From a virus (lineage: Duplodnaviria > Heunggongvirae > Uroviricota > Caudoviricetes): a stretch of 14,190 bases of DNA. The notes beneath the pieces are model-generated. The model did not search any database. It saw only the letters and a list, made by a program, of their open reading frames with translations, and had not been told where the DNA came from. Position 1 is the stretch's first letter; each line of letters begins with the position of its first letter. Of this stretch, positions 6,265 through 13,989 are shown one piece after another. The DNA lies in the IMG/VR virus record IMGVR_UViG_2534681697_000026; one strand, 5' to 3'. The position numbers were made by a program, and so were the translations under genes.

Positions 6265-6418
6265 TTAAAACAACGAACCAAGCAATCCGATACCAGCACC
6301 AATGCCAGCGCCCCAAGGTGTTGATGTTCCCAAAAGGCTGGCAAGACCTGCACCGGCAATCGCACCAGACGTTCCGCCACTAATTGCAGTCTGAAGACTT
6401 GATGGTTTATTGGCATTA
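6265..6418 (-). pseudogene. 3' fragment of P22 gp7-like ejection protein gene, separated from its 5' part by an IS insertion
   Basis: Reverse-strand frame reads (A)NANKPSSLQTAISGGTSGAIAGAGLASLLGTSTPWGAGIGAGIGLLGSLF-stop, in frame with the 5' fragment when the IS and one TA are removed; stop lies 9 nt upstream of the gp20 start. Confidence 0.7.
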
Positions 6419-6429
6419 GGCTGTGTCCC

Positions 6430-6945
6430 TTAATTACGTAAGCGTTGATAAAAGAGTCGGATGCAGCCCAGTTTCACCATCGCCAGGTAATTTCTCGCCG
6501 TTTTGTCGTAACGCGTGGCGATGCGGCGATATTCTTTCAGCCGCCCAAAGCACCGTTCAACGACATTACGATTGCAGTACGCATCACGATCAAGCTGTGC
6601 ACGTCCATCCGATGCCATTTTCTCATTTGACTTTCGGGGGATTACTGCCTTTATACCGTTATTTTTCAGCTCGTTGCGCAATGCGCACCCTGAATACGCT
6701 TTATCAGCCAGTACCGCATGTCCACGGCGTTTCATGCTGCCGTTCTGACGCTGAACGCCAATCCCGTCCAGAAGTCGTTGCGCGAACTGGCTTTCATGAG
6801 CTTGTCCGGGGCTTAGCACGATATTTAACGGGAGGCCACTTCCGTCTGTTGCCAGATGGATTTTGGTGCCAAAACCGCCGCGAGAGCGACCCAGCCCATT
6901 ATCTCCGTCGATATCGGGATGTTTTTTTGAGCACCGGCGGCACAT
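6430..6945 (-). CDS. IS5-family transposase OrfB (DDE catalytic part), accessed by -1 frameshift from OrfA
   Basis: Acidic/conserved motifs DIDGDNG, LADKAYSG and NVVERCFGRLKEYRRIATRYDK, consistent with a DDE transposase; overlaps orfA in the -1 frame across an A7C run (plus-strand gtttttttgag at about 6921-6931). Confidence 0.8.
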   Translation of the reverse strand: MCRRCSKKHPDIDGDNGLGRSRGGFGTKIHLATDGSGLPLNIVLSPGQAHESQFAQRLLDGIGVQRQNGSMKRRGHAVLADKAYSGCALRNELKNNGIKAVIPRKSNEKMASDGRAQLDRDAYCNRNVVERCFGRLKEYRRIATRYDKTARNYLAMVKLGCIRLFYQRLRN

Positions 6946-7274
6946 TTCAGCGCCCGGATATTACTGCCATCCAGCGCGGTGGCAGACCAGTCAATAAAGC
7001 CGTTTGCATCAAGTAGCGAAAGCAACCTGTTGAAAATAATATTAATCACGCCTGACTTTGACCATCGGTTAAAGCGGTTATAAACAGTTTTCCATGACCC
7101 ATATCGTTCGGGTAAATCGCGCCATGGTGCACCGGAACATAACACCCAGAACATGCCATTGATGATTTTACGGTGCTCAGCCCATGGGCGTCCGGCCCGT
7201 GGTGTGGCGGGTTCAGGAGGTAACAGGGGCTTGATGATGGTCCATGCCTCATCGGGAAGGTCGTAGCGAGCCAT
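6825..7274 (-). CDS. IS5-family transposase OrfA (N-terminal DNA-binding part)
   Basis: MARYDLPDEAWTIIKPLLPP… N-terminus typical of two-ORF IS5-family transposases; starts 60 nt inside the IS end. Confidence 0.8.
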   Translation of the reverse strand: MARYDLPDEAWTIIKPLLPPEPATPRAGRPWAEHRKIINGMFWVLCSGAPWRDLPERYGSWKTVYNRFNRWSKSGVINIIFNRLLSLLDANGFIDWSATALDGSNIRALKCAAGAQKNIPISTEIMGWVALAAVLAPKSIWQQTEVASR

Positions 7275-7334
7275 AGTTCAATATGTTGTGTAAACAGACA
7301 GTTACTATAGCTCAGATGATTAAGGGACACAGCC

Positions 7335-7872
7335 TAGCAGCGGCAAGAGCTGCGCTTTGCTGTGCAATGCTGCTCATGTTGTTGGCGTACGTCTGCCCGG
7401 CGTTTGCCTGACCTTGAAGTGCACCAAGCCCAACGTTTGCCAGATTGTTGTAATTGCTCATCTGGTTTGATAACCAAGACTGACCGAGAGTAGGCGCGAT
7501 CGTAGCCAGTTGATTGCTTGTGGCTGTCGAACCAAGTCCACCCGTCGCCTCCGCAGCAGCAAGACTCTGGTAACGAGCCTGACCTGCAAGGTCTTTATAC
7601 TGCTGAGAGTTGTAATACTGATTAAGTGCCTGCCCCTGACCTTCTAAACTGGAAAGGTTCTGAAGCTGGTTAACATACTGCTCCGCAAGAGGCGTGAACG
7701 GAGCAAGGTTTTTCATGATCGTCTGCCACTGCTGATTTTGCAGGTCTGCGGCATACTTCTGAGCTTCTGCTGCATACTTTGCGCTTTTATCGGAGCCACC
7801 TTTCCCGCCTTTTTCAGGGCAATAAGGTTCCTCGCCGCGCAGTTTTCTGCCCAGCTTAAATGCATATAACAT
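7335..7872 (-). pseudogene. 5' fragment of P22 gp7-like ejection protein gene, interrupted by IS copy A
   Basis: N-terminus MLYAFKLGRKLRGEEPYCPEKGGKGG… in the position expected for gp7, immediately downstream of gp14; the track ORF 7312-7872 reads through into the IS end and stops there. With the 3' fragment it reconstitutes 229 codons. Confidence 0.75.
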
Positions 7873-9178: not shown

Positions 9179-10596
9179 TACTCAATCCTTATCTGAGTGC
9201 CAGACAGAGTGACAGGTGACTTCGTGATAATGCGCAATTTGAAGCCGACATTTTTCCTGATGCGCCCTACTCGCTTCCACAAAACGCGTTTGTCGTAAAC
9301 GAACGGTTCATTCTGCTCAATCATCTGCTCACGTCCGTAATTGATGCCGTCAGTGGTTGCAGAGAGGAACAGGCGGTCGGCGTACTGAGCTACGCCAGTG
9401 GATGATTCCACCTCCAGATCGAAGCATCTGGCGTTATCCGCTTTGAACAACGGAGTAAACAGCAGGTGTTCCTGCTGCTTGTCGTACTGGCTGCTGATAT
9501 CGAACTGCAGTTTCCCGGTCACGGATTCCAGCTTATCGCCGCACGTTATCTGATTGCCTTCGTAAATGAAGTCGATAGCGCGGTACACATCGTCATACAG
9601 GCCTGTTTTCAGCACACACCATTGCGGACCATTGGCGCTTGAAGATGCATCGTACACAAGGACGTGACGCGGAAGATGGATAATCAGCAACTCATGCGCA
9701 TCAAATCGCAGAGACTCCATCACACCATCAGCCAGTTCATCAGCAGTGTAGGAGCGAAGTATTTTCTCAATGCTCGCGCTGGCGATTGGTGATACCTGAC
9801 CGGAACCGATGATGTACACAGACGGCGCACCCGTTGCCGGGTTGCTGATGAAAGCATAGGAATCAGCAAACGGCGTTTTGCAGTAAGTCCCGGCGATGCC
9901 TTTTTGCACCATCAATGATGGCTGGGCGACATACAAAGCAGCACCAACGGTGGTTGCACCAGTCAGGGAGAAATATTCAATCGTCGATGAACCAAAGCAG
10001 ACGATGAAGTCTCGCCATGTCCCTATGCCGATGATGCCATCAGGCTGAGATTCTGCGCGATATTGTGCGCTGTATCGGTCAGGATGTGATTCGTCTTCAA
10101 GGTCAGTGATAAACCATGAATCAGTACCGTCTTTTGACCACGCATAACGCCCACGTAAGCGCGTAATGTCACGAACCGAACCTAGCTCATACTGAGTGAA
10201 TCCGCTATCTGTAGGCCAGTTTGAGACGGTTTTAATCGTGCCATCATAGCGATACTCGACCAGTTGACCATTAACACCTATCGCCTGAGATGTACGACCA
10301 TGCGCCATTGATACGCGACCACTTCCGGCGACGTCACCGACTTCACTTTCTCCTTTGTACAGCTTGCCACCACACACACGATAAACAGCATTCTGCGCCA
10401 TGTTGTACTCGACGCCGCGAGATACACCGTTCACATCAGAGCGTTTGGCAATGCCAGGGAATGAGCGAAGATATCCGCTGCTGTTCAGGATTTCTTTGGG
10501 TGTAGCCAGCATATTCACTGGCAGATAGTCGATATAGTCGGCGTTTCGAAAGTCTTTGCCGACACCTTTCATAAGCGGAAGTTGCTGAATAGGCAT
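9178..10596 (-). CDS. P22 gp10-like tail accessory (portal-closure/tail hub) protein, 472 aa
   Basis: Same length as P22 gp10 and correct position between gp4 and gp26; stop overlaps the tail needle start (ATGA). Confidence 0.85.
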
Positions 10597-12306: not shown

Positions 12307-12366
12307 GGCTGTGTCCCTTAATCATCTGAGCTATAGTAACTGTCTGTTTACACAACATATTGAACT

Positions 12367-12816
12367 ATGGCTCGCTACGACCTTCCCGATGAGGCATGGA
12401 CCATCATCAAGCCCCTGTTACCTCCTGAACCCGCCACACCACGGGCCGGACGCCCATGGGCTGAGCACCGTAAAATCATAAATGGCATGTTCTGGGTGTT
12501 ATGTTCCGGTGCACCATGGCGCGATTTACCCGAACGATATGGGTCATGGAAAACTGTTTATAACCGCTTTAACCGATGGTCAAAGTCAGGCGTGATTAAT
12601 ATTATTTTCAACAGGTTGCTTTCGCTACTTGATGCAAACGGCTTTATTGACTGGTCTGCCACCGCGCTGGATGGCAGTAATATCCGGGCGCTGAAATGTG
12701 CCGCCGGTGCTCAAAAAAACATCCCGATATCGACGGAGATAATGGGCTGGGTCGCTCTCGCGGCGGTTTTGGCACCAAAATCCATCTGGCAACAGACGGA
12801 AGTGGCCTCCCGTTAA
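12367..12816 (+). CDS. IS5-family transposase OrfA
   Basis: Identical 149-aa product to copy A orfA. Confidence 0.8.
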   Translation: MARYDLPDEAWTIIKPLLPPEPATPRAGRPWAEHRKIINGMFWVLCSGAPWRDLPERYGSWKTVYNRFNRWSKSGVINIIFNRLLSLLDANGFIDWSATALDGSNIRALKCAAGAQKNIPISTEIMGWVALAAVLAPKSIWQQTEVASR

Positions 12817-13211
12817 ATATCGTGCTAAGCCCCGGACAAGCTCATGAAAGCCAGTTCGCGCAACGACTTCTGGACGGGATTGGCGTTCAGCGTCAGAACG
12901 GCAGCATGAAACGCCGTGGACATGCGGTACTGGCTGATAAAGCGTATTCAGGGCGCGCATTGCGCAACGAGCTGAAAAATAACGGTATAAAGGCAGTAAT
13001 CCCCCGAAAGTCAAATGAGAAAATGGCATCGGATGGACGTGCACAGCTTGATCGTGATGCGTACCGCAATCGTAATGTCGTTGAACGGTGCTTTGGGCGG
13101 CTGAAAGAATATCGCCGCATCGCCACGCGTTACGACAAAACGGCGAGAAATTACCTGGCGATGGTGAAACTGGGCTGCATCCGACTCTTTTATCAACGCT
13201 TACGTAATTAA
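12696..13211 (+). CDS. IS5-family transposase OrfB (DDE domain)
   Basis: 171-aa product, 2 aa different from copy A orfB; -1 frame relative to orfA. Confidence 0.8.
   Translation: MCRRCSKKHPDIDGDNGLGRSRGGFGTKIHLATDGSGLPLNIVLSPGQAHESQFAQRLLDGIGVQRQNGSMKRRGHAVLADKAYSGRALRNELKNNGIKAVIPRKSNEKMASDGRAQLDRDAYRNRNVVERCFGRLKEYRRIATRYDKTARNYLAMVKLGCIRLFYQRLRN
12714..12720 (+). other. A_AAA_AAC slippery heptamer, predicted programmed -1 frameshift site joining OrfA and OrfB
   Basis: orfA frame reads gcT CAA AAA AAC atc; shifting -1 at the A7 run gives …AQKK-HPDIDGDNG… and a fusion transposase of about 280 aa. Confidence 0.55.
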
Positions 13212-13348
13212 GGGACACAGCCTAGATGCCGCTATCAGATCCTCCACTTTGAAAGCGAAGCTTATACATATCTTTTACATCAGCAATCTATTGTTAATCT
13301 CCAATCAATGTTACGTTGTCATCTCACTCATGCTTTGGAGGTAGTGAT

Positions 13349-13593: not shown

Positions 13594-13616
13594 GCCGCCT
13601 GATGGCGGTTTTTTTA
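13594..13616 (+). terminator. rho-independent terminator
   Basis: CCGCC-tgat-GGCGG stem-loop followed by TTTTTTTT. Confidence 0.5.
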
Positions 13617-13629
13617 TTTGGGGTAGTAG

Positions 13630-13922: not shown

Positions 13923-13945
13923 GCCGCATCAATGCGGTTTTTTTA
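13923..13945 (+). terminator. rho-independent terminator
   Basis: CCGCA-tcaa-TGCGG stem-loop followed by TTTTTTT, about 75 nt after the stop of the 71-aa ORF. Confidence 0.5.
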
Positions 13946-13989
13946 TTACCTGATTTGCAGGTTCGATTCCATATTCGGAGATAGCACTC

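Follow-up and report, generated by a model that had tools for sequence, protein, structure and literature searches.

The gene for the DNA ejection protein gp7 in a prophage remnant of Shigella boydii ATCC 9905 is split by an insertion sequence (IS), and its present structure is almost certainly the outcome of one simple transposition of a 916-bp ISSfl7-type element of the IS5 family into a TA dinucleotide straddling gp7 codons 179/180. The window, by which we mean the whole 14,190-nucleotide stretch of DNA that was analysed, is a heavily decayed P22/Sf6-like prophage remnant and does not represent a viable phage. The element lies inside the homologue of P22 gp7 and Sf6 gene 11, which is encoded on the minus strand from an ATG at 7872-7870 to a TAA stop at 6267-6265, and a TA stands directly outside each of its ends. 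The locus is composed of the following features.

6265..6416, minus strand: gp7 3' fragment (bases 2-3 of codon 180, then codons 181-229 with the stop)
6417..6418, no strand: TA, second copy of the target-site duplication (sequence and empty-site comparison)
6419..7334, transposase on the minus strand: IS5-family insertion sequence, 916 bp (NCBI "ISSfl7 family"; profiles and repeats)
7335..7336, no strand: TA, one copy of the 2-bp target-site duplication (sequence and empty-site comparison)
7337..7872, minus strand: gp7 5' fragment (codons 1-178 plus bases 1-2 of codon 179)

Read on the plus strand, the sequence across the element is ...TTGGCATTA / GGCTGTGTCCCTTAAT...ATTAAGGGACACAGCC / TAGCAGCGG..., with the slashes at 6418/6419 and 7334/7335. 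TA makes up 4.8% of the dinucleotides of the window, and the chance of finding it at both flanks of the IS is about 0.2%.

Removal of the element and one TA restores gp7

The first-pass annotation of this DNA had proposed that taking out the IS together with a single TA yields a frame of 229 codons, and in-silico excision reproduced its coordinates, its TA flanks and its frame length exactly. Joining 7872..7337 to 6418..6265 gave 690 nt, that is 229 amino acids and a stop, with the product MLYAF...SAALAAA/NANKPSS...GLLGSLF, in which the slash marks the junction. The frame was lost when both TAs were kept (692 nt) and also when both were removed (688 nt). The same annotation had given 229 codons as the size of P22 gp7, and this is indeed the length of the P22 protein (690 nt, 229 amino acids, 9369-10058 of NC_002371).

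As it stands, the open reading frame at 7312-7872 comprises 179 gp7 residues followed by RLCPLII and a stop within the IS. This 186-amino-acid fusion matches exactly EFW55280.1, annotated as "Phage DNA transfer protein [Shigella boydii ATCC 9905]", and the gp7::IS junction string is TTGCCGCTGCTAGGCTGTGTCCC. The interrupted product is without its C-terminal 50 residues, which are conserved and hydrophobic and include, in the alignment described below, an STPWGA-IG-G-GLL-SLF motif that is nearly invariant from P22 to Sf6. The corresponding 3' fragment, which codes for this Gly/Ala-rich hydrophobic C-terminus (...STPWGAGIGAGIGLLGSLF), lacks a start codon in the gp7 frame.

The rebuilt protein and the empty site in intact relatives

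The rebuilt protein matches the Pfam family PF25688 (P22_gp7) over positions 1-230 of the 230 in the profile (E 3e-132; 439.9 bits against a cut-off of 28) and PHROG 598, "DNA ejection", with an E-value of 6e-99. Its gene occupies the place in the late operon that is typical of the family, between the gp14 and gp20 homologues, and the minus-strand order gp4, gp10, gp26, gp14, gp7, gp20, gp16 is colinear with P22 and Sf6. The rebuilt protein shares 83% of its residues with P22 gp7 and 99-100% with the gp7 proteins of Sf6, phage Dewey and an E. coli prophage. According to the annotation of the P22 record, gp7 is carried in the virion and leaves it upon infection, and the host protease OpdA cleaves off its N-terminal 20 amino acids; a PDB sequence search with gp7 found no solved structure. 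Compared with intact gp7 and Sf6 gene 11, the gene in the window is split at codon 179/180 and the hydrophobic C-terminus cannot be made.

A tblastn search of phages with the rebuilt protein covered residues 1-166 only, as low-complexity filtering hides the Gly/Ala-rich C-terminus. Since this search could not judge the junction, homologous genes were retrieved and aligned directly, the rebuilt protein being compared with Sf6 gene 11, phage Dewey, the E. coli MB50 prophage, vB_EcoP-611R6 and P22 gp7. In this alignment, which the first-pass annotation had put forward as the comparison that could overturn its reading, the junction was free of gaps and unshifted relative to all five intact proteins, and the residues AAANAN across it were invariant in 6/6 aligned sequences. 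The sole indel is one serine at position 27 (GGSDK versus GGSSDK), 152 codons upstream of the junction, and represents a natural length polymorphism, given that the 229-amino-acid form is common to P22 and 611R6. An indel at the junction had been raised by megablast matches 3 nt longer than the query; it was ruled out, as the Ser-27 codon proved to be their source.

The empty site itself is preserved in Dewey, Sf6 and MB50, whose sequence TTGGCAT-TA-GCAGCGGC contains one TA at the position that TA-IS-TA occupies in the window. Furthermore, the rebuilt 229 amino acids are identical, residue for residue, to a natural protein that is found on 112 contigs (P0121, "MULTISPECIES: DNA transfer protein [Enterobacteriaceae]"), and all ten of the loci coding for it that were examined carry one TA at the site (GCTGC-TA-ATGCC). 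The rebuilt gene differs from these ten intact genes by 12-17 nucleotide substitutions, all of which are synonymous. The proposal of a clean simple insertion was thus borne out by the single TA of the empty site and by the natural counterpart of the rebuilt protein, and the accompanying statement that no secondary decay has occurred holds for gp7, whose protein is that of a natural allele.

The element, its transposase and its target site

The IS is bounded by a perfect 16-bp terminal inverted repeat, GGCTGTGTCCCTTAAT, at 6419-6434 and 7319-7334; extended with the TA, the repeat matches at 23 of 27 positions. TA being palindromic, the placement of the ends is ambiguous, and the element can be described either as 916 bp with a TA duplication or as 918 bp including one TA. 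Its coding content is as follows.

6825..7274, minus strand: orfA, 149 amino acids, N-terminal part of the transposase (DUF4096; NF033580 positions 2-112)
6430..6945, minus strand: orfB, 171 amino acids, DDE catalytic part (DDE_Tnp_1; NF033580 positions 112-257)
6922..6928, minus strand: A7 run CAAAAAAAC in the orfA/orfB overlap, candidate -1 slip site

With scores of 132.7 bits for orfA and 173.5 bits for orfB (cut-off 110), the two frames contiguously cover positions 2-257 of the 258 in NF033580 (transpos_IS5_3), which identifies them as an IS5-family DDE transposase. The orfB frame is -1 relative to orfA, and a -1 slip on the A7 run would produce a fused transposase of 281 amino acids. In the NCBI annotation this transposase is a single CDS, "IS5-like element ISSfl7 family transposase", and its 845 nt are the length expected from such a slip.

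The same IS is annotated as ISSfl1 ORF1/ORF2 on the S. flexneri plasmid pCP301 (AF386526), with the same 916 bp and two-ORF layout; nothing substantive differs, and the gp7 element is another copy at another site. Virulence plasmids from S. flexneri, S. boydii and S. dysenteriae carry copies 99.3-99.8% identical to it, as do 46 of 5426 complete E. coli genomes. S. boydii genes inactivated by ISSfl7 have already been reported, for instance fimD in strain CIP52-54 (PMC4374849).

In its length of about 0.9 kb, its two ORFs and its 2-bp duplication, the element resembles the IS427 or ISL2 subgroup of IS5. Our search of the literature on the duplication length of IS5 subgroups yielded nothing decisive, and a survey of 150 distinct IS ends was therefore used as the basis for the target-site rule. 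For this survey, the 16-bp inverted repeat was scanned in one genome per species across other Enterobacterales, and the flanks were then read. TA adjoined 141 of the 150 ends (94%) and was present on both sides in all 27 elements with both ends present. Position -3, just outside the TA, was C or T in 142/150 ends, which defines the target as YTAR; the gp7 site, T-TA-G, fits this rule. That the duplication is 2 bp long is evident from the one TA of the empty gp7 site and the two of the filled site.

The survey also brought to light a 265-bp element of which Serratia aquatilis (CP173186.1) has at least 14 copies; these end in the 16-bp inverted repeats of the IS, are flanked by TA and are MITE-like derivatives of ISSfl7-type elements. 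Shorter MITE-like forms of 151-244 bp are present in Symbiopectobacterium and Xenorhabdus.

The proposed course of the insertion is as follows. A -1 frameshift on the A7 run would join orfA to orfB and thereby supply the DDE transposase. Judging from the behaviour of the family and from the sequence, this enzyme probably cuts with a 2-nt stagger at the YTAR target, and repair of the gaps would duplicate the TA, giving a net gain of 918 bp. In the sequence as it stands, translation of gp7 proceeds through the 179 native codons into RLCPLII and ends inside the IS, and neither gp7 fragment has gained any further change.

State of the prophage remnant and the order of events

The window is only partly colinear with Sf6 and P22, the shared part comprising gp16, gp20, gp7, gp14, gp26, gp10, gp4 and coat on the minus strand. 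Apart from the interrupted gp7, this part is well preserved: gp16, gp20, gp14, gp26, gp10, gp4 and orf61 have exactly the lengths that they have in the intact prophage of E. coli O104:H4, and a scan of these seven genes for internal stops found none. The remainder of the prophage has been reduced considerably, and a second copy of the IS lies at the border of the missing part.

12307..13222, plus strand: second IS copy, inverted, 100% identical (TA at 12305-6 and 13223-4)

One side of this copy adjoins coat at nt 256-257, for which the intact site reads ggtaac-TA-catcac; the IS::coat junction string is GACACAGCCTACATCACTGTTG. The other side adjoins early-left DNA that matches Sf6 from 18493 to 18188, near attP and attL-proximal. 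As coat is thereby joined to attL-proximal DNA, about 25.7 kb is missing at the locus, including the 5' end of coat and the scaffold, portal, terminase, lysis, replication, immunity and early-left genes. In the loci L007 and L008, host genes follow within 1-2 kb.

Further lesions were found towards the left of the window. A 161-amino-acid lipoprotein gene (phrog_6067; 2429-2930, between mnt and gp16), intact in E. coli O104:H4, has a 20-bp deletion at 2676/2677, which sits between AGGCAAGA direct repeats and, through a frameshift, divides the gene into two ORFs. This deletion is the sole lesion of the remnant seen without an IS association. An IS2 at 721-2051 adjoins mnt on the left side of the window. 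In the early-left part of the remnant, two terminator-like hairpins were observed at 13594-13618 and 13923-13947 (GCCGCnnnnnGCGG followed by T7), 329 bp apart, which flank small ORFs (phrog_2945 and phrog_15342); next comes an excisionase-like ORF that continues past the end of the window.

These lesions bear on the claim of the first-pass annotation that the IS event dates the inactivation of gp7. For the reading frame this claim stands, since gp7 carries no lesion other than the IS; as a statement about the event that disabled the phage it does not, since other lesions are present, and the IS need not be what killed the phage. It is quite possible, at a little short of an even chance, that the simple insertion struck an already dead prophage in which gp7 function had gone before the IS arrived, so that the IS would not date the functional inactivation. 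This order of events is favoured by the truncation of coat at nt 256, by the absence from the locus of the scaffold, portal, terminase, lysis, replication and immunity genes, and by the frameshift that the 20-bp deletion causes in the lipoprotein gene. Against it, gp7 and its six neighbouring late genes are without frameshift or nonsense mutations and their divergence is almost only synonymous; neutral evolution, whether it preceded or followed the insertion, can therefore have lasted only briefly. The remnant carries several IS-associated lesions, the gp7 insertion among them.

A possible rearrangement between the two IS copies

The two identical IS copies are inverted relative to each other and 4968 bp apart, and the gp7 halves might in principle have come to flank the IS through an IS-mediated rearrangement (deletion, inversion or recombination between copies), with the TA flanks being merely the usual neighbours of this IS. 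Indeed, 94% of the ends of this IS type adjoin TA anyway, and the second copy is TA-flanked on both sides yet joins unrelated sequences. For the gp7 copy we consider such an origin highly improbable, since its flanks are exactly contiguous in intact genes, with one TA as the sole change, and both gp7 fragments lie on the same strand in an order colinear with Sf6 and P22, which excludes an inversion. Readings of the inverted pair as a composite transposon or as the product of an inversion were also rejected, the gp7 halves being contiguous and colinear.

The second copy, judging from the sequences that it joins, is an endpoint of a deletion or rearrangement and not a simple insertion, despite its TA flanks. 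Since it bounds a deletion although a TA is present on both sides, the TA flanks of this IS are no proof of a simple insertion; the comparison with an empty site alone provides that proof, and for the gp7 copy this comparison supports the simple transposition.

The insertion in other assemblies

The window is 100% identical to AERN01000049.1, a draft contig of the 2011 era. The gp7-IS junction recurs in the complete chromosome CP026875.1 (2 mismatches in 13.5 kb), as well as in QWSH01000203.1 and in a read-level Logan assembly made independently from SRR4787083. Although the window is identical to a draft contig, and although this draft differs from the complete chromosome to the left of IS2, a repeat misplaced during assembly is effectively excluded as the origin of the IS in gp7 by the presence of the junction in CP026875.1 and in the assemblies QWSH01000203.1 and SRR4787083, whose contigs read through the gp7 junction into the IS. 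The discrepancy at IS2 consists of a C-terminal fragment of an RHS core (154-723) that precedes IS2 in the window and the draft contig, as against a truncated tailspike, a third ISSfl7-type copy and an acyltransferase gene in CP026875.1 (L007, 16700-20561), and reflects either a strain difference or a mis-join of the draft at IS2.

In five other assemblies (of S. flexneri, of a metagenome and at read level), contigs break off 3-4 nt short of the TA at which the IS entered gp7. They carry a different, 230-amino-acid gp7 allele and no IS sequence at their ends; in the assemblies with such ends, which include WPGH01, JAIQPS01 and AAVDSX01, the sequence runs to ...CTTGCCGCTG. One S. boydii contig stops 9 nt before the gp7 TA. 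If these ends represented independent IS insertions, gp7 would have been struck repeatedly at one site, and such a hotspot could hint at a structure in the target or reflect selection in prophage remnants against keeping the ejection protein intact. That the TA at codons 179/180 is a recurrent break or insertion hotspot seems unlikely to us. More probably, the contig ends are branch points of the assembly graph at a mosaic boundary inside gp7.

Discussion

Taken together, the IS, the gene family and the kind of lesion described here are all known, the genome is public, and nothing about them is new. Several IS, an IS-bounded deletion and intact neighbouring genes are the usual pattern of genome reduction in Shigella. 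With two ISSfl7-type elements and one IS2 within 14 kb, a deletion bounded by an IS and neighbouring genes that are otherwise intact, the remnant conforms to the IS-driven pseudogenisation and prophage decay of these bacteria, and we can name no difference from it. The result does not challenge the current understanding of IS biology, of P22-like phages or of Shigella genome decay.

Its value is small and lies in a verified 2-bp TA duplication by an ISSfl7-type element for which a natural empty site is available. The second copy adds a methodological caution, namely that matching flanks are no proof of a simple insertion when the IS is specific for TA. For the organism itself, the gp7::IS insertion is fixed in a small lineage and, being common to at least four assemblies, serves as a lineage marker for S. 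boydii ATCC 9905 and its relatives.
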